From contig JASUTF010000002.1 of the NCBI GenBank assembly GCA_030445695.1, forward strand, positions 1 to 32,000: 32,000 nt of DNA, written 5' to 3'. Shown here piece by piece: positions 22,268 to 31,576 of the stretch. This DNA is from Candidatus Iainarchaeum sp. GTDB taxonomy: Archaea; Iainarchaeota; Iainarchaeia; JAADDC01. Made by a program: the position numbers and the translations under genes. The stretch's first letter is position 1; every line of letters starts with the position of its first letter. The notes under the pieces were generated by a model, which saw nothing but the letters and a program-made list of their open reading frames with translations, did not search any database and was not told where the DNA came from.

Positions 22268-22280
22268 CGTGGGTAGAAAC

Positions 22281-22949
22281 ATGGACGTTCAGACGTTGTG
22301 GACGATCACCGGACTAGCAGCCGTCGACATGGTAAATCCCTGCACCCTTGCAGTGCAGGTACTCCTACTATCTGCTCTTGTGTTAACGAAGGGCAGAAGA
22401 GACGCAATTATCGGCGGAATCCTATTCACGGTAACGATATACATAATGTATCTGCTCTACGGGCTTGGCGTGCTTCAGCTCATTTACACGCTGGGAATTC
22501 AAGACCTCTTGCGTGCGATTCTCAAGATTCTGATACTCGTGATGGCAGTTCTCGAAATCATGGCTTTCTTCAAGTACCGTCCCGGCTTCATATCCCTTGA
22601 AATGCCCATGTCCTTCCGACCCATCGCTCAAAAAGCTCTGAAGTCCGTTGAGAACCCGTGGATGGCCGTACCCGTCGCCGTCCTCTGCTCCGTACTTTTG
22701 CTCCCCTGCTCCTCCGGGCCATACCTTTCCGCAATCATCCTACTTGCAAACACAGCAGTTGAAAAAATCTTCTACCTTCTTTACTATAACATGATATTCA
22801 TCCTTCCGATGATTGCAATAACGGCAATCGTTGGTTTTGGAACAAAACCGGAGGCGGTGATGGAATGGAGAAAAAGACACATAAGGGAACTGCACCTGAT
22901 CGCGGGAATACTGCTGCTGGCGGTGTTCGCTATGCTATCTATGGAGTAA
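22281..22949 (+). CDS. CcdA/DsbD-type transmembrane thiol:disulfide electron-transfer protein
   Basis: Polytopic membrane protein with two membrane-embedded Cys motifs, VNPCTLAV and LLPCSSGPYL. The start is taken at the ATG at 22281; the track ORF begins at GTG 22269. Confidence 0.7.
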   Translation: MDVQTLWTITGLAAVDMVNPCTLAVQVLLLSALVLTKGRRDAIIGGILFTVTIYIMYLLYGLGVLQLIYTLGIQDLLRAILKILILVMAVLEIMAFFKYRPGFISLEMPMSFRPIAQKALKSVENPWMAVPVAVLCSVLLLPCSSGPYLSAIILLANTAVEKIFYLLYYNMIFILPMIAITAIVGFGTKPEAVMEWRKRHIRELHLIAGILLLAVFAMLSME

Positions 22950-23431
22950 TTTTCTCAATCATATTGCTGGTAGCGGCCCTTGCGTGGTATTCCGGCCAGA
23001 CAGGCGGCGGGAAAGATATGCCACAGGAGGGCAACCACTTGGGCGTTCTCGTATACTCTCCAACCTGCCCGCACTGCCACTCACTGATGAAATACCTAGA
23101 CGAGAAGTATCCGGACGCTCCGATACTGAGAACAACGGACGGCTCCAAGATAAAGGAGTACCTAAAGGAAGCGGGCGTTTCATGGGACGGTGGCGTCCCA
23201 ATCATGGCGGTGCGCGTGGATGGAAACGTCTTCGTGCTTTCTGGCTTTCCGTCGGAGAACCAGGACGTGAACGGCTACTTCATGGGCAGAGAAAAGGAAC
23301 TGTCACTCTGTAAAGGAATGCGAGGAACGCCGTACCCTAACGAGCAAAACTACCTCTTCTGCATACTTCCGGACGGAAAAATACTGGGAAACAAGTACGT
23401 AGTGGACTGGGTGCTCTCTAAGATCGGATAA
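22865..23431 (+). CDS. Membrane-anchored thioredoxin-like protein (CPHC)
   Basis: 188 aa with a basic N-terminus, one transmembrane helix (VRYAIYGVIFSIILLVAALAWY) and VLVYSPTCPHCHSL. The only plausible start, ATG 22865, overlaps the ccdA-like gene by 85 nt in another frame. Confidence 0.65.
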   Translation: MEKKTHKGTAPDRGNTAAGGVRYAIYGVIFSIILLVAALAWYSGQTGGGKDMPQEGNHLGVLVYSPTCPHCHSLMKYLDEKYPDAPILRTTDGSKIKEYLKEAGVSWDGGVPIMAVRVDGNVFVLSGFPSENQDVNGYFMGREKELSLCKGMRGTPYPNEQNYLFCILPDGKILGNKYVVDWVLSKIG

Positions 23432-23864
23432 TGTCCTTCAGTGCGGGGCCGGGGAGGATAATATACGTTTTTCCCACTCTTTCCCGCCTGATAACGTCAC
23501 GGGCCTCGAGGGCTGCCACCGCCCTGCTAGCACGGACCTTCCCGAAAAGCTCGGAAATCTCGGACTGAAGGACGCTGCCATTCTCAAGGACGGATCGGAC
23601 GATGAACCACTCTTCCTCCTTGTCAAAGAGCGTGGCGATCCTATCCAGATCATAATGCGAAGTGTTTCCTCCTTCCGGAAATAGTTTCAGGAGGGCGATG
23701 CCCGCGATTATGCCAACCGCAAAGAACGTGGGGATATATAGCGGAACGGGGAAGGAACAGCCACAGACGTTACCGCTCGCAATGATCTGCTGGACGTGGT
23801 AGGTCTGGTACGCCACGAGGAGCGTGGACGCGATCAGTATCCCCGCCGGTATGTATTTCCTCAT
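23418..23864 (-). CDS. Membrane-anchored winged-helix transcription regulator with a CGC motif
   Basis: 148 aa with two N-terminal transmembrane helices flanking NVCGCSF. The C-terminal wHTH-like segment is SVLQSEISELFGKVRASRAVAALEARDVIRRERVGKTYII. There is a 4-nt overlap with the thiI stop. Confidence 0.6.
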   Translation of the reverse strand: MRKYIPAGILIASTLLVAYQTYHVQQIIASGNVCGCSFPVPLYIPTFFAVGIIAGIALLKLFPEGGNTSHYDLDRIATLFDKEEEWFIVRSVLENGSVLQSEISELFGKVRASRAVAALEARDVIRRERVGKTYIILPGPALKDIIRS

Positions 23865-25174
23865 TGTGCGATCCTCCTATACGTCTTCTCGTCGAGCGCG
23901 TAAACGTCAAATCCCTGCTGGCGGAGGACAGACGCCTTTGCCATAGCCGCCGTGCCGGTGGGGCAGATCAAGAGGTATTTCCTCCCTTTCTCCGGCACGA
24001 AGTAGGGGTTCTCACGCAAGTTCACCACGACAAAACCCTTCAAGCTCTGGCCGTGGAAGATAACATCTTCGTCAGCGTGCTTCTCCGTCTCGCGAAGCCG
24101 ATCTACAAACTCTTCGTAATTAAAACCGAGCTTACCTACGAACATCTGGACCTTTTCGGGCTTCGGGTTCGTTACCGCGTGCTTCGACAGGACGCAGACC
24201 TCCGGTACCTTTTCTGACGCTTCGAGCGTGCCGATCCTCCGGGCAAGTTCGACGATCTCATCCTTGTCGTATGAGATGAGTGGTCGGAAAATCGGGCGTG
24301 AAGCGTATCTCTCCAGAACGGTGAGCGACTCCAGCGTCTGCGTGGATACTTGAGATAGAACCTCACCCGTTCCGATCGCGGGGAGATTCAGCTCGTCTGC
24401 CACTGCATCGGCGATTTTGTACAGGACTGCCTTGAACACGATCTGGCGGTAACCCTCGGGGACCGTATCTATGATCTTATCCATTATTTCCGGTGCGTCT
24501 ATAACGTAGAAGTGCAGGTAGGGGAACCACTCTGCCAGACGTTCGTAGACGCTGTATACGAGGGTTTCCTGGGCAGGCCCGGCAACGTTGACGAAAAGGA
24601 GTGTTGGCTGGACTCCACGCTTTGCCAGTCGCCATACTGCCACGGGTGAGTCGATTCCACCGGAGAAAAGGAAGAGTACGCGGCCTGCAACGCCGACAGG
24701 CAGCCCGCCCGGACCGGGAAACACGTCGCGGAAAACATAAGCTTTCCCGTTGATAATCTCTATGCCGATGTTTAGCTCTGCGTTCTTCAAATCGACGGTG
24801 GCACCAGTTTTTTCCTTGACATAGCCGCCGACGAGTCGATTAATCTCTGGAGAAGTCCAAGGCACGTCCTTAGTCACACGCTGCGTCTTCACTGCGAAGG
24901 TCTTCTCCCCGCGGTAGAGGGAAAGTGCCGCCTCTCTCATTTTCTCCGGCTCCGCGGGGACAACGATTGCAGGGGAATACGACTTCACTCCGAAGACCTT
25001 GCCCACCTTTGTCCAGTCGCCACCCTTCAAAATGATTCTGGCTGCCTCGCGGTGTGCTTTCCCGCCTGTCTGGCGCTCGAGATTCCTGACTAACTGCTGC
25101 TCGAAGCGTATGCGAACGGGTCGGCTCTTCAGGGCAATCTCAGAGTGGCGGACAATCACAACGTCGTAGTTCAC
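23861..25174 (-). CDS. thiI: tRNA 4-thiouridine synthase ThiI (THUMP + PP-loop + C-terminal rhodanese-like domain)
   Basis: 437 aa with LFSGGIDSPVA (the SGGxDS PP-loop). The C-terminal YLLICPTGTAAMAKASVLRQQGF resembles a rhodanese Cys loop. It has a GTG start. Confidence 0.85.
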   Translation of the reverse strand: MNYDVVIVRHSEIALKSRPVRIRFEQQLVRNLERQTGGKAHREAARIILKGGDWTKVGKVFGVKSYSPAIVVPAEPEKMREAALSLYRGEKTFAVKTQRVTKDVPWTSPEINRLVGGYVKEKTGATVDLKNAELNIGIEIINGKAYVFRDVFPGPGGLPVGVAGRVLFLFSGGIDSPVAVWRLAKRGVQPTLLFVNVAGPAQETLVYSVYERLAEWFPYLHFYVIDAPEIMDKIIDTVPEGYRQIVFKAVLYKIADAVADELNLPAIGTGEVLSQVSTQTLESLTVLERYASRPIFRPLISYDKDEIVELARRIGTLEASEKVPEVCVLSKHAVTNPKPEKVQMFVGKLGFNYEEFVDRLRETEKHADEDVIFHGQSLKGFVVVNLRENPYFVPEKGRKYLLICPTGTAAMAKASVLRQQGFDVYALDEKTYRRIAQ

Positions 25175-26395: not shown

Positions 26396-27127
26396 ATGGA
26401 CTTCAGCTTTGACGTGCCACAGGAGAAGGACCCGAAGAAGGAAGCACTGCTAAAATACTCAAAAATCGTGTTCATCGGCTGCTCGAGGAACGAAGAAAAA
26501 GATGCACACACCGTCCCAAAGTTCATGAAGGAGCACGGGTACGAGATCGCCTGCGTTAACCCCTTCGCAGAAGAGAACATTCTCGACGCGCCCACGTTCA
26601 AAGATATTGCAGACGTTCCAGACGAGTTCCTGGAAATCATCGATGTATTCCGCCCCTCTGAGGAGATACCGAAGATAGTGGACAGAATCATAGAAACGGG
26701 CAAGATTCCGAAGGTATTCTGGATGCAGGACGGGATAAGAAGTGAATACGCCCGCCAGAAACTCGAGCCATTGGGAGTCACGGTCATCGAGGACTCCTGC
26801 ATCATGCGCAAGCATATGGAGTTGTTCGTGAGCAAAGACCCCGTTTATGAGGCGATTCTGCGGTTTGCACGTACATATGCGAAGGCACAGGGCTTTGTTC
26901 TGAATCCAGACCCCGAGAAATTGGACGAAGTTATCTCAGGCCTTGCATACAACCAGAAGACGTATGGCTTCCGCTACTGTCCCTGCCGACCGATTACTGG
27001 AGATCTGGAGGAAGACAGAAAGAAGATCTGCCCGTGCTTCTGTCACCGCGACGAGATAAAACGCGACGGCCACTGCCACTGTGGCTTGTTCTGGGATCCG
27101 GAAGCTGCAAAGAGGTTGCAGAAGTAA
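26396..27127 (+). CDS. Fusion protein: CoA-binding domain + ferredoxin:thioredoxin-reductase catalytic-subunit-like domain
   Basis: The N-terminal part, [33 protein letters not shown]...[13 protein letters not shown]...FWMQDGI, is of the CoA_binding/YccU type. The C-terminal part, [39 protein letters not shown], has the CPC...CPC...CHC pattern of the FTR catalytic subunit. Confidence 0.75.
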
Positions 27128-27210: not shown

Positions 27211-28437
27211 ATGGTATTTGAGCAGGGTATAAAGCGGTTGGAGCACACGGCAGAGAAGATAGGACTTGAGGACTGGATTCTGGAGGCACTGAAGCGTCCG
27301 AAACGTGTTGTTAAGGTCTCCTTCCCCGTCAAGATGGACAACGGAACCATAAAGACGTTCACGGGCTATCGCGTTCTCTACAACGACGCACGCGGCCCAG
27401 GCAAGGGTGGAATCCGCTATCACCCCAACGTGAACGAGGATGAGGTCACGGCACTGGCGTTCTGGATGACCATTAAGAACGCTGTAGTGGATCTGCCCTA
27501 CGGCGGTGCAAAGGGCGGAATTACTGTTAACCCCAAGGAACTATCGCCAACGGAACTCGAACGCCTCTCCCGCGCATACATAAGGGCAATAGCGGATGTC
27601 ATCGGCGACGAGAGGGACATCCCCGCACCTGACGTCTACACGAACCCCAAGATAATGGCGTGGATGGTGGACGAGTACGAGACCATCGTCCGCAAGCACG
27701 AGAACGGTGTGATAACGGGCAAGCCCCTCTCCATCGGCGGTTCCAAGGGAAGATTTACTGCAACGTCCTGGGGCGGATTCTTCGTCATGGAGGAGGCCTT
27801 GAAGACCTACGGCATCGACGGAAAGACCGTGGCAATCCAGGGTATAGGCAACGTGGGTGGTGGGCTGGCACAGATACTTTACGACAAGGGCTACAAGGTC
27901 GTGGCTATCTCCGACTCCAAGGGCGGCATATACAACCCGGACGGTCTGAACATTCCCGCAGTGATGGAGCACAAGAAGAAGACGGGCCGCGTCTCCGGAT
28001 TCCCAGGCGCAAAGGACATAACCAACGAAGAATTACTAGAATTGGACGTGGATGTTCTCGTCCCCGCAGCCATAGAGAATGTCATAACGAAGGAGAACGC
28101 GGACAGAATAAAGGCAAAGATTGTTCTGGAACTGGCAAACGGCCCGACAACCGCAGAGGCGGACGAGATACTCAAGAAGAAGGGCATCGTCGTCGTCCCA
28201 GACGTCCTGGCCAACGCGGGCGGAGTGACTGTATCCTACTTCGAGTGGGTGCAGAACCGCATGGGCTTCTACTGGACGGAGGAAGAGGTGCTCGAACGCC
28301 TGAGGAACAAGATGGTCTCAGCGTTCCATGACGTCCACAAGAAAGCAGAAGAGCTCGACGACGATTTGAGAACAGGAGCCTACGCAGTGGCTGTGGAAAG
28401 GGTTGCGGAGGCCATGCGCGACCGCTACGGCCACTGA
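27211..28437 (+). CDS. gdhA: Glutamate dehydrogenase
   Basis: The ATG at 27211 follows a strong Shine-Dalgarno sequence and gives [11 protein letters not shown]...[16 protein letters not shown]...LPYGGAKGG...GIGNVGG (408 aa). The upstream 59 codons of the track ORF cross the intergenic promoter. Confidence 0.9.
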
Positions 28438-29483
28438 ACCCATTCTTCAACCTCTTCTTTGCATGCATTGAATTCTACCCTCTCGTCACACGGGCAGTAG
28501 AACGGGATGAAATCGTCCGAAGAGTGCCAGTAGATCGTGCCGGAATAGCACTCACAGTTTATAGAAGAAGAACCCAATTCAATTAAGGGCGATTCTGCGT
28601 TACTGCAGATGTATGAATAACTGTCTACCACGAGTGTCACATTCGAGAAGTTAGCGTAAATCGCAGGTCCCAAAGTGGGCCGGAGAATCCGGATTCGTTT
28701 CAGCATAATGCCATCTGAAAAACTAATGACAAGCGGTGCTGCAGCGTCAGCCCAGAAGTCCTCTCCATTCTTCGTCATTTGCTTATCAAGATACGCGATG
28801 GATACGCCGTCTAGCCGGCAGGAATCAGAATTGTACAAAACAACTCCAGATCCCGTAGGGTCTGTCGGTACTGCTACCTCGTGAAGAGTAACGTCGTAAG
28901 AGTTCTCTATGCGTATGGCAGACCCGCCATAACCATGAAATCCGACCACAAGGTTGTGTAGAACGACGCGTGAGACACCATCCAAATGAATGGAGCTTGC
29001 CCAGCCAGCATAATCCCACACCTGAACATTAATGTCCTCCAAAGACACACCAGTGGACGAGTTTATCTCAATTGCCGGTGAACTGTTCGGGTTGAAATGC
29101 GTTGCATATATAAAGTGTCCGTTTCCGTCAAAGACAATCCACCGTTTATACGGTACGCGCAACCCCGATACTTTAATGCAAGAGCCGTTCTGTCTACCAA
29201 TATCCCGCGTTAAAGTAACATAGACGTTGATACCCATCGCATTAGCAATTCTATTGGCCTCCAGAAGAGCGTTGACGCACGATTCGCAAGAGTTACATTC
29301 AAGATGGCCTATATTTTGAATGTTAGGGTGTTGGGATCCGTGTTCTTTCGCGCTCCTGGGCTGGATGTTCACTAATGTAGAATCGACGCGCACCAGCGTA
29401 TTTGAAAACTGAACAATCGCCACAACAACAACTAATAGAATCAAAAAGATTACAGCAAGTTCCTGTAGCTTTGGGCGATACAT
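28425..29483 (-). CDS. Membrane-anchored, Cys-rich right-handed beta-helix repeat protein (NosD/pectate-lyase-like fold)
   Basis: 352 aa with an N-terminal transmembrane helix, then [18 protein letters not shown]. Repeated V/I-x-L/I-x-N/D-type beta-helix rungs follow ([36 protein letters not shown]). It converges on and overlaps the gdhA 3' end by 13 nt. Confidence 0.55.
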
Positions 29484-29502: not shown

Positions 29503-29814
29503 CTACTTTATTATTCCTGGCGTCGGTTTTTCAGCGCTCAGAGTTTTCTCTGCCAGTTCAAGAATTCTGCGGACAGCATCAACGTCGTTCACGTAGACGA
29601 TTATCTTCCTGCCCTCACGACGAGAAGTGACTATCCCGGCATCCTCAAGAACCTTTATGTGACGCCAGGCGGTAGAAACGTCCTTTCCTATACACGCAGC
29701 AACGTCCTGAGCACATTTGGGGTCGGATATTATTTCGTAGAGTATGCGCAACCGTGATTCGCTGGCAAGAGCACGGAAAAAGCGGGCAAGACGTGTTAGA
29801 TCGTGATAATTCAT
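29503..29814 (-). CDS. ArsR/SmtB-family winged-helix transcription regulator
   Basis: The ATG at 29814 gives MNYHDLTRLARFFRALASESRLRILYEI...CAQDVAACIGKDVSTAWRHIKVLEDAGIV. The track start at 29832 is a TTG inside the operator palindrome. Confidence 0.8.
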   Translation of the reverse strand: MNYHDLTRLARFFRALASESRLRILYEIISDPKCAQDVAACIGKDVSTAWRHIKVLEDAGIVTSRREGRKIIVYVNDVDAVRRILELAEKTLSAEKPTPGIIK

Positions 29815-29815
29815 A

Positions 29816-29846
29816 TTTGCATAGTTATGCAAACATCTTTAAAAAC
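29816..29846. promoter_or_regulatory. arsR/pdo divergent control region: the 18-bp perfect palindrome TTTGCATA-GT-TATGCAAA next to a shared TATA box
   Basis: The palindrome is at 29816-29833. The TATA-like CTTTAAAAAC is at 29837-29846. On the minus strand this reads TTTAAAG-ATG-palindrome-T-ATG(arsR). Confidence 0.55.
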
Positions 29847-29896: not shown

Positions 29897-30574
29897 ATGG
29901 TTTTGAGTGACAAAGACAAAGAGGGTGTTAAGAAGCTCCTCGAGCCGGTTCAGAGGGACGTGAAGATCCTGTTCTTCAGGGACGACTCTTCGCGTTGCCA
30001 GTACTGCGATGTTATAGAGGAACTGCTCGAAGATATTCATTCTGTCAACGAGCACGTCATCTACGAGGTTCTGGACGCGAACAGCGACAAGGCAAAGGAA
30101 TACGGCATTGAGGGTGGCCCCGTCCTCCTCTTTGAGGAGAGGCCGAACATCCGCTACAGGGGAATTCCTTCAGGTCACGAGTTCCCAGCATTCCTTGATG
30201 ACATCGTTACAATCGCAAAGGGATCCGTGGATCTGAATGCAAACGCCGCGAAGAAGATCGCAAGGATACAGGAGCCGCTCCACGTGCTGATCTTCGTCAC
30301 ACCGACCTGTCCATACTGTCCACTGGCAGTTAGGGCTGCACACCACTTCGCATACGCCAACGACAAGATACTGGCAGAGATGGTAGAGGCCATTGAGTGG
30401 AGTGACCTGGCAGACCAGTACCGCGTCTCCGCGGTGCCCAAGATCGTTGTGCTCGACCCCGAAACGGGCAACGAACTGCTGGAGTGGGAAGGTGCCGTCC
30501 CTGAGGAAGTGTTCGCAGACTACCTGCTCCATGCGCTTGAGCACAAGCACGGGGCCCACGACCATCACCACTGA
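29897..30574 (+). CDS. Protein disulfide oxidoreductase (glutaredoxin-like; two thioredoxin folds)
   Basis: 225 aa with two CxxC sites (SRCQYCD and PTCPYCP) and a His-rich C-terminal tail, HKHGAHDHHH. A GAGGTGA Shine-Dalgarno sequence lies upstream. Confidence 0.8.
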   Translation: MVLSDKDKEGVKKLLEPVQRDVKILFFRDDSSRCQYCDVIEELLEDIHSVNEHVIYEVLDANSDKAKEYGIEGGPVLLFEERPNIRYRGIPSGHEFPAFLDDIVTIAKGSVDLNANAAKKIARIQEPLHVLIFVTPTCPYCPLAVRAAHHFAYANDKILAEMVEAIEWSDLADQYRVSAVPKIVVLDPETGNELLEWEGAVPEEVFADYLLHALEHKHGAHDHHH

Positions 30575-30586
30575 GGAGGTGGTGGC

Positions 30587-31576
30587 ATGCCGTCCCCCTT
30601 CTCTTTTTCCCTCGAATCACCGGTGCTATCGAAGGCAGAGCTGAAGCCGGAATATGACGTGGTCATCGTCGGCGGAGGACCTGCAGGCCTCGCAACAGCC
30701 ATCTACGCAGCCCGTGCCATGCTCCGAACCGCTGTAATCTCCAAGGATTTTGGAGGGCAGGTTTTAGACGCACACTCCGTGGAGAACTATCCCGGATTCA
30801 TCAAAACAACGGGGCAGGAACTCATGAACGCGTTCAAAGAACACGCGGAGCATTTCGGTGCTGAACTCATTCAAGCAACGGTAAAGGACATCTGGAGGGA
30901 AGGCGATCACTTCGTCGTCGACACAGACAGAGGAAGCACAAAGGCACCGGCCATCATATACGCAACGGGCTCAACGCACAGGAAACTGGGCGTTCCGGGC
31001 GAGGAAGAGTTCCTCGGGAAGGGGGTTTCTTACTGTGCCATCTGCGACGCCGCTCTGTTTCAGGGTAAGGTCGTTGCTGTCGTTGGCGGGGGCAACATGG
31101 CGTTCATGGACGCAGACCTGCTCACTCAGCACGCCTCCAAAGTTTATATCATCCACCGTCGCAACGAGTTCCGTGCAGAGCCCCTCTGGGTTGAACGCCT
31201 GAAGAAGAACCCGAAGGTGGAGTTCATAACGCCCTACGTTGTCGAGCGCATCGAGGGCACAGACAAGGTCGAGAAGCTCATCATAAAGAACAGAGAGACG
31301 GGAGAGACGAAGGAACTGCCCGTAGACGGTGTGTTCATCGACATCGGCATGATCCCGCAGACAGAACTGGCAAAAAGGGTCGGTGTGGAACTGAACGAGC
31401 GTGGATACATCATAGTCAGGGAAGACCAGAGCACAAACGTTTCGGGCTTCTTCGCGGCGGGAGACGTGACCACGGGCATGAACGGCGTGCATCAGATCGT
31501 CACCGCAGCGGCGAAGGGAGCCATAGCAGCTCTGTCCGCCTACGACTACCTGAAGGGCAAAGGCTTCGTGAAGTAA
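30587..31576 (+). CDS. trxB: Thioredoxin reductase (low-Mr flavoprotein disulfide reductase)
   Basis: 329 aa with YDVVIVGGGPAGLATAIYAARA, the redox-active CAICDA, VVGGGNMA and FAAGDV. A GGAGGTGG Shine-Dalgarno sequence lies 6 nt upstream. Confidence 0.85.
   Translation: MPSPFSFSLESPVLSKAELKPEYDVVIVGGGPAGLATAIYAARAMLRTAVISKDFGGQVLDAHSVENYPGFIKTTGQELMNAFKEHAEHFGAELIQATVKDIWREGDHFVVDTDRGSTKAPAIIYATGSTHRKLGVPGEEEFLGKGVSYCAICDAALFQGKVVAVVGGGNMAFMDADLLTQHASKVYIIHRRNEFRAEPLWVERLKKNPKVEFITPYVVERIEGTDKVEKLIIKNRETGETKELPVDGVFIDIGMIPQTELAKRVGVELNERGYIIVREDQSTNVSGFFAAGDVTTGMNGVHQIVTAAAKGAIAALSAYDYLKGKGFVK

Follow-up and report, generated by a model that had tools for sequence, protein, structure and literature searches.

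In ferredoxin:thioredoxin reductase (FTR), ferredoxin reduces a disulfide by way of the enzyme's cluster, and the substrate face described for the enzyme binds thioredoxin folds (PMC3838966). Thioredoxin is also the substrate reduced by the ferredoxin:disulfide reductase (FDR) of M. acetivorans (4TPU; PMC6262447), and an FDR from Desulfotalea psychrophila (7PWE) is fused to glutaredoxin. For CoA, the flavin CoA-disulfide reductases (CoADR/NSR) of Thermococcales use a single cysteine and a tightly bound CoA to reduce di-, per-, and polysulfides (PMC6026696), and in Bacillus, TrxA and YtpP remove CoA from proteins (PMC10136147). Approximately 200 B. subtilis proteins are CoAlated under stress; according to the CoAlation literature, counterparts of glutaredoxin that act on CoA have yet to be discovered, and few organisms are known to have CoA-disulfide reductase. 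The YccU/YneT family of CoA-binding proteins occurs in bacteria and archaea, and its Pfam model matched 11 of 14 control genomes, in some cases through ligase domains. Several of its structures are solved and are described without an assigned function.

Here, we describe a gene in which these two kinds of domain are joined. The window (the whole 32,000-nucleotide stretch of DNA that was analyzed) belongs to a 664-kb archaeal genome that is 88.6% complete, and the gene occupies 26396..27127 of the + strand as a single open frame of 243 amino acids without an internal stop. Its YccU/YneT-type CoA-binding Rossmann domain (residues 10 to 146; 26423..26833, + strand) is supported by PF13380, alignment to PH1109/3Q9N, and fold match, and its [4Fe-4S]/disulfide domain of the FDR/FTRc type (residues 148 to 243; 26837..27124, + strand) by PF02943 and alignments to 7PWE, 4TPU, and 1DJ7. 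Both Pfam matches were well above their cutoffs (CoA_binding_2, PF13380, residues 23 to 140, E = 8e-27, 94 bits versus 22.8; FeThRed_B, PF02943, residues 152 to 241, E = 3e-24, 85 bits versus 22). In the AlphaFold2 model (pLDDT 92, pTM 0.85), two helices join the domains, with about 3 residues between the helices. Both domains were found in a single protein in 16 clusters from NCBI, JGI, ENA, and Logan, at 48 to 87% identity. Because these four independent sources carry both domains in one chain, the fusion is not an assembly artifact. Comparison with four close loci gave a dN of ∼0.06 to 0.11 against a dS of >1.1 for both halves, indicating purifying selection; together with the multisource fused homologues, this rules out two genes fused by sequencing error. 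The proposal of a sequence-only reading of this DNA, that a CoA-binding domain and an FTR-type domain share one gene, was therefore borne out by the frame, Pfam, homologues, and model, and the two halves are not separate genes.

The second domain belongs to the FTR family by motif, profile score, and fold. The six-cysteine FTR pattern noticed in the sequence-only reading was confirmed as CPC at residues 195 to 197, CPC at 212 to 214, and CHC at 227 to 229, such that Cys195, Cys197, Cys212, Cys214, Cys227, Cys229, and His228 are all present; the six cysteines were found in all 16 complete fused rows aligned, and no second copy of the pattern exists among the six-frame ORFs of the 664-kb genome. 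With roles assigned from established FTR chemistry, Cys195, Cys212, Cys214, and Cys227 would be the cluster ligands and Cys197-Cys229 the redox disulfide. Ferredoxin and SUF-like genes are present in the genome. The CPC-x14-CPC-x12-CxC spacing and fold are the same as those of the M. acetivorans FDR (E = 3e-14; Z = 12.9) and of the D. psychrophila fusion (E = 9e-17; Z = 13.8), which also has an N-terminal partner domain, and the modeled domain superposes on the FDR domains of 7PWE and 4TPU (Z of 13 to 14; rmsd of 2.3 to 2.4). In contrast to these two proteins, however, the extra domain here is a one-cysteine CoA-binding Rossmann fold and not rubredoxin or a CxxC glutaredoxin. The catalytic subunit of plant and cyanobacterial FTR (1DJ7, 7BZK) has the same fold and Cys/His motif (Z = 11.5; rmsd of 2.3), whereas the fusion differs in cysteine spacing, in its added CoA domain, and in its nonphotosynthetic host; no FTR variable subunit was seen among the window neighbors of the gene. 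Against the FtrB double selenoprotein model (NF041072), the fusion scored 88.5 bits, below the cutoff of 160, and it has no in-frame TGA. Two other FTRc domains near the fused clade (P0050 and P0052) have a C-terminal extension; that of P0052 matches a class III signal peptide, and two genes may have been read as one.

The first domain of the model superposes on TT1466 and PH1109 (Z of 21 to 22; rmsd of 1.6 to 1.7) and also on 1Y81, with single-domain relatives scoring an overall Z of 17 to 22. Proteins of the YccU/YneT/TT1466/PH1109/PF0725 type (PF13380; 1IUK, 2D5A, 1Y81) share its fold, CoA-contact residues, and CoA-proximal cysteine; these relatives stand alone and are described as uncharacterized, whereas the PF13380 domain here is tied to a reductase domain. 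Published CoA contacts include Ser28, Arg33, Asp34, Ala35, Asn53, and Pro54 in 3Q9N, a PH1109 derivative, and Ser15, Lys20, Asn40, Pro41, and Gln92 in 1Y81 of P. furiosus (PMC9312308 Table S3). Alignment to these lists placed Ser30, Lys35, Asp36, Ala37, Asn55, Pro56, and Gln111 of the fusion protein at CoA-contact positions, while three 3Q9N contacts are replaced (Lys30 by Asn32, Asn55 by Phe57, and Tyr56 by Ala58). Thus, CoA-contact residues, whose absence on alignment the sequence-only reading had named as an outcome that would count against it, are present.

Alignment to relatives also identified Cys135 (codon 26798..26800, + strand) as the candidate site of a mixed disulfide with CoA. Cys129 of 3Q9N, Cys116 of 1Y81, and Cys126 of YneT all align with this residue; Cys129 lies 2.7 Å from CoA and Cys116 is disulfide bonded to it (PMC9312308 Table S3), and B. 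subtilis YneT, CoAlated at Cys126, was one of four proteins identified in spores and was identified again under diamide (PMC8127865). At the position of Cys135, cysteine is found in each of the 88 aligned stand-alone proteins and in 15 of 17 fused rows, and it has disappeared solely where the remaining CoA site has gone as well. By analogy to the solved relatives, we infer that the first domain of the fusion is organized to place the thiol of CoA against a single invariant cysteine. The same fold, by structure superposition, is found in the alpha subunit of succinyl-CoA ligase, in which Cys123, within a similar motif, carries linked CoA in a crystal and undergoes CoAlation in cells of rat and Bacillus; its equivalence to Cys135 rests on motif and fold. 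Because this ligase is not a reductase, a CoA-cysteine bond can be passive, arising from proximity alone. Ligases vary at the similar position (isoleucine in the host's own acyl-CoA synthetase and in Korarchaeum ACD1), whereas the YccU family is invariant. With the alpha subunit of ADP-forming acyl-CoA ligase, the fusion shares the CoA fold alone and lacks the ligase domains. Other cysteines of the protein were also compared: Cys53, mostly replaced by proline in stand-alone proteins, recurs in 15 of 16 fused homologues, Cys29 recurs in 14 of 16, and Cys216 is found in this protein alone. Cys29 and Cys53 could be resolving cysteines.

The fusion is narrowly distributed. Among 215 genomes of the phylum, it was detected in a single Micrarchaeota family, in 8 of 14 genomes, two of the eight copies being cut by contig ends; it was not found in the remaining 6, one of which is 94% complete. 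Two genomes of the host's genus presumably come from hydrothermal deposits, judging from their sample names. There are also a few more distant fused proteins, which are archaeal. In a profile search of 1.84 billion representatives, two 50%-identity clusters span both domains among the best 150 matches. A search for longer fused forms found none, which is weak evidence; an ESM Atlas feature search gave no usable match, and in an Atlas shape search every match was either a stand-alone CoA-binding protein or a fusion to a Cys/Met-metabolism PLP enzyme. No publication naming a CoA-binding/FDR fusion was found in the literature searched, a set outside which the main FDR papers fall. The architecture is new, its parts are known, and its spread is narrow. 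In quick trees, the fused FTR domains form one group and the fused CoA domains another, so a single origin of the fused domains may hold. Nested among the fused proteins in the CoA-domain tree is a stand-alone CoA-binding protein encoded beside RuBisCO (P0038; L055:6001-6387), possibly a fission product of the fusion.

In one sub-lineage (P0013/G200 and P0015), Cys135 and most residues of the CoA site are lost and all six FDR cysteines are kept; the FDR domain can thus persist without the CoA site. The decayed-site loci are L163:4489-5899, L164:792-6796, and L048:3692-4934. Upstream of thiI at these loci, we observed a LutB-like Fe-S gene, a membrane protein, and a CCG-domain gene. This CCG/LutB-like cassette was considered as a substitute reductase and set aside, since it occurs at two loci alone and a search of the 14 family genomes gave no CCG.

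The gene neighborhood points to a redox partner. A glutamate dehydrogenase gene (27211..28437, + strand) begins 83 bp downstream of the fusion gene, an arrangement conserved within the genus only. After it, 2.8 kb downstream of the fusion gene, lie genes for a protein disulfide oxidoreductase (PDO; 29897..30574, + strand; CQYC and CPYC motifs; above the TIGR02187 cutoff) and a thioredoxin reductase (30587..31576, + strand; CAIC and an NADPH-type HRR motif; above the TIGR01292 cutoff), with an ArsR-family regulator (29503..29832, − strand) divergent from PDO. Judged by its motifs, the thioredoxin reductase would be a second, NAD(P)H-fed route to PDO. The order of fusion gene, glutamate dehydrogenase, and PDO is common to the genus only. 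Elsewhere, the fusion gene stands among unrelated neighbors, and outside the genus we found no redox neighbors in common and no thioredoxin beside it. In G200, L163, and L164, PDO directly follows the fusion gene, overlapping or abutting it, and at L163 no thioredoxin reductase follows PDO. That the gene with a decayed CoA site adjoins PDO suggests that the FDR domain passes its electrons to PDO, which is likely the thioredoxin-fold partner of the fusion.

Several other genes were also noted. The gene for the tRNA sulfurtransferase ThiI (23861-25174, − strand; above its NCBIfam cutoff), whose product has a short C-terminal cysteine-containing tail, lies 1.2 kb upstream of the fusion gene and is directly divergent from it in L164. 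At 22269-23431 (+ strand), a gene for a CcdA-like-looking membrane protein without a Pfam match overlaps one for a membrane-anchored CPHC thioredoxin-fold protein, a pair that forms a possible route for exporting thiol electrons. Between the glutamate dehydrogenase and ArsR genes, 28425-29483 (− strand) encodes a protein of 352 amino acids that is rich in cysteine, has a hydrophobic segment in its N-terminal part, and matched nothing in Pfam. In the sister genus (L167:5367-7658 and L169:7176-9395, genomes G208 and G210), an FNR-like FAD/NAD-binding gene comes after PDO and thioredoxin reductase; the host genome showed no such gene.

An unfused version of the association was found in other Micrarchaeota, in which FTRc, CxxC thioredoxin, and CoA-binding genes are tightly packed on one strand (L038:5306-6470; L041:5472-6659; L172-L183; the first two in G063 C9 and G073 C5). 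This order was found in 11 of 12 loci of the closest relatives of the operon CoA protein, across three families, and the thioredoxin gene lies between the other two in 11 of 11; 8 of these operons have a 2[4Fe-4S] ferredoxin directly upstream, and three have a second thioredoxin. The equivalent of Cys135 is kept in 12 of 12 of these closest relatives. None of 18 more distant relatives of the operon CoA protein had an FTRc neighbor. The operon CoA protein shares ∼30% identity with the fused domain and is nearer to 1Y81, and in quick trees both it and the operon FTRc branch apart from their fused counterparts, which argues for two or more origins of the FTRc/CoA-binding association; being related to one another, the eleven operons count as one event. 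A winged-helix regulator and a pair of Fe-S P-loop ATPases were also seen after the ferredoxin-FTRc-thioredoxin-CoA-binding operon.

Each half of the fusion has further thiol-redox partners in other proteins. Among the fusion partners of CoA-binding domains are thioredoxin, on either side, and glutaredoxin; those of FTRc include thioredoxin, glutaredoxin, and ferredoxin, the thioredoxin or glutaredoxin taking the N-terminal position that the CoA domain holds here. The YccU-type fusions observed (P0044, P0167, P0087, P0179, and P0145) involve thioredoxin, glutaredoxin, ThiS, and carbon-nitrogen hydrolase. A thioredoxin or glutaredoxin neighbor was present in 35 of 77 unfused metagenome FTRc loci. 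A CoA-binding neighbor, on the other hand, was found in 0 of these 77 loci (flanks of up to 3 kb; loci partly redundant) and in 0 of 23 Acidobacteriota FTRc loci (1.5-kb flanks), and the closest stand-alone relatives of each half showed no FTRc/CoA-binding neighbor pairing. General linkage of FTRc and CoA-binding genes was thus not found outside Micrarchaeota in the loci sampled.

Gene content across the family suggests a metabolic setting for such a protein. A 2-oxoacid:ferredoxin oxidoreductase was found in 12 of 14 family genomes, and the host genome encodes an AOR/GAPOR-family enzyme, a small 2[4Fe-4S] ferredoxin, a peroxiredoxin, and, as a separate 453-amino-acid gene, the alpha subunit of ADP-forming acyl-CoA synthetase. 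Full-length CoA-disulfide reductase and coaBC (CoA synthesis) were each detected in 0 of the 14 genomes, which also had no detectable NiFe hydrogenase or complex I-like membrane oxidoreductases; these are incomplete assemblies, and absence across 14 is unlikely from assembly loss alone. In the host genome, FeFe hydrogenase, the reductase dimerization domain, and an FNR-type domain were not found. The host cell thus probably has few visible ferredoxin sinks, although its ferredoxin-reducing enzymes are present. The fusion is not the sole sink in the family, because it is missing from six genomes; in the 94%-complete fusion-less genome, an FNR-like gene follows the thioredoxin reductase. Given that coaBC is absent across 14 assemblies, CoA is probably scavenged, and the suggestion of the sequence-only reading that CoA is the organism's major thiol found no support. 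A role for the FDR as donor to ribonucleotide reductase was set aside, as the 89%-complete genome yielded no such reductase of class I/II or of class III.

We propose, as a tentative reading to which we give somewhat less than even weight, that the fusion acts as a relay, powered by ferredoxin and free of flavin, that would reduce CoA disulfides by way of a CoA site with a single cysteine, turning over Cys135-S-S-CoA and releasing CoA. The residues, folds, gene associations, and gene absences behind this proposal are observed, and every catalytic step is inferred. The 2-oxoacid:ferredoxin oxidoreductase and AOR/GAPOR-family enzyme, whose genes were found, would reduce 2[4Fe-4S] ferredoxin, which in turn would reduce the [4Fe-4S]/Cys197-Cys229 site in two one-electron steps, following established FTR chemistry for which the residues are present. 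The N-terminal domain would bind CoA with its thiol beside Cys135, as in solved relatives with the same conserved residues. Cys135 may then attack CoA-S-S-CoA, CoA persulfide, or a CoA-protein disulfide, with one thiol leaving and Cys135-S-S-CoA staying. Finally, a thioredoxin-fold protein, probably the neighboring PDO, would take electrons from the FDR domain, resolve Cys135-S-S-CoA, and free CoA, a step suggested by the operon and by deCoAlation by Bacillus TrxA/YtpP. Overall, a pool of scavenged CoA would thereby stay in reduced form for use in peptide fermentation, and some reduced ferredoxin would perhaps be consumed. The Bacillus proteins are a precedent for a thioredoxin fold resolving protein-S-S-CoA, although they are NADPH fed and no dedicated CoA-binding carrier has been described for them. 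The flavin CoADR/NSR enzymes (TIGR03385; FAD/NAD(P)H-binding; ∼440 amino acids) offer a working analogy only. No flavin CoA-disulfide reductase family in Pfam or NCBIfam matches the fusion, which is not a member: its fold is unrelated and has no FAD/NAD(P)H site, and its electrons would come instead from ferredoxin via [4Fe-4S]. Against the relay, a CoA-linked cysteine is also present in the nonredox succinyl-CoA ligase, and CoAlation under stress extends to the ∼200 B. subtilis proteins noted above; the FTRc-CoA link is not general, and one sub-lineage keeps the FDR without a CoA site; the fusion was not found in 6 of 14 family genomes and has no common redox neighbors outside the genus; and PDO already has an adjoining thioredoxin reductase.

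The same observations can be arranged differently. If the protein were an ordinary ferredoxin:disulfide reductase for PDO joined to a CoA sensor or store, then CoA, acyl-CoA, or CoAlation of Cys135 would tune or buffer it without CoA turnover. We consider this main rival rather unlikely, although thioredoxin or glutaredoxin is the usual partner of FTRc (35 of 77 loci, and fusions), the sub-lineage without a CoA site keeps an intact FDR that abuts or overlaps PDO (L163 having no thioredoxin reductase after PDO), and succinyl-CoA ligase sets a precedent for a CoA-linked cysteine without reductase function; the adjacent helices predicted to link the domains (pTM 0.85) would also be compatible with allostery. 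Such a sensor accounts less well for a cysteine that is invariant in the stand-alone family when ligases vary at the similar position, and the operon CoA protein, a chain of its own encoded after a dedicated thioredoxin, is more readily seen as a substrate than as an allosteric domain. The sequence-only reading instead favored a self-contained ferredoxin:CoA-disulfide reductase; in such an enzyme, Cys197 would attack Cys135-S-S-CoA directly, in the chain or across a dimer, with no need of thioredoxin. This we regard as quite improbable. It would fit with the CoA domain holding the N-terminal position of thioredoxin or glutaredoxin in other FDR fusions (7PWE) and with the fusion gene standing without an adjoining thioredoxin outside the genus. 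However, the unfused version places a thioredoxin gene in between in 11 of 11 cases, the ∼3-residue linker between two helices in the model would limit docking of one domain on the other, and the described substrate face of FTR binds thioredoxin folds (PMC3838966). The operon thioredoxin and the decayed-site gene adjoining PDO therefore make a thioredoxin-fold shuttle likelier than direct reduction. The link to CoA-thiol chemistry drawn in the sequence-only reading is strengthened by Cys135, which that reading had not seen, whereas direct action of the Fe-S domain on CoA is not supported and neither is CoA as the major thiol.

A slightly more improbable alternative is that two neighboring stress genes were fused incidentally during genome streamlining and that each domain works independently. 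The fused FTR and CoA domains may have a single origin, few clusters span both domains (two at 50% identity in the best 150 matches from 1.84 billion proteins), and the domains can decay separately, all of which would favor this alternative; however, both sites remain intact in fused homologues with as little as 48% identity, and the same two families meet independently in the operon and are each fused to thioredoxin elsewhere. Very improbable, in our estimation, is a persulfide-handling module in which Cys135 or bound CoA would carry sulfane sulfur for the FDR to release or deliver for tRNA thiolation or Fe-S assembly. CoA-binding domains fused to ThiS and to Cys/Met-metabolism PLP enzymes, the thiI gene upstream in the window and divergent in L164, and a TtuA-like and ThiS pair flanking a distant homologue are consistent with it, but the sulfur-relay neighbors lie on the opposite strand and are missing from most other loci, and the operon version has none.

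Returning to the ferredoxin-driven relay, a broader extension, which we judge unlikely, is that the YccU/YneT family as a whole would be a single-cysteine CoA carrier for thiol-disulfide exchange (a "CoA-redoxin"), with the fusion acting as a flavin-free ferredoxin:CoA-disulfide/persulfide reductase and as an electron sink to CoA-bound sulfur in a vent DPANN lineage, for which searches gave neither hydrogenase nor membrane-bound oxidoreductase. The fusion, the independent operon, and the invariant CoA-linked cysteine together yield a concrete redox hypothesis for the YccU/YneT family, and two questions meet in one small protein suited to expression and assay. If true, this would give the widespread YccU/YneT family its first role, and a ferredoxin-fed route would account for CoA recycling in anaerobes that have no flavin enzyme and would point to a way in which ferredoxin is reoxidized in a fermenting DPANN archaeon where hydrogenase was not detected.
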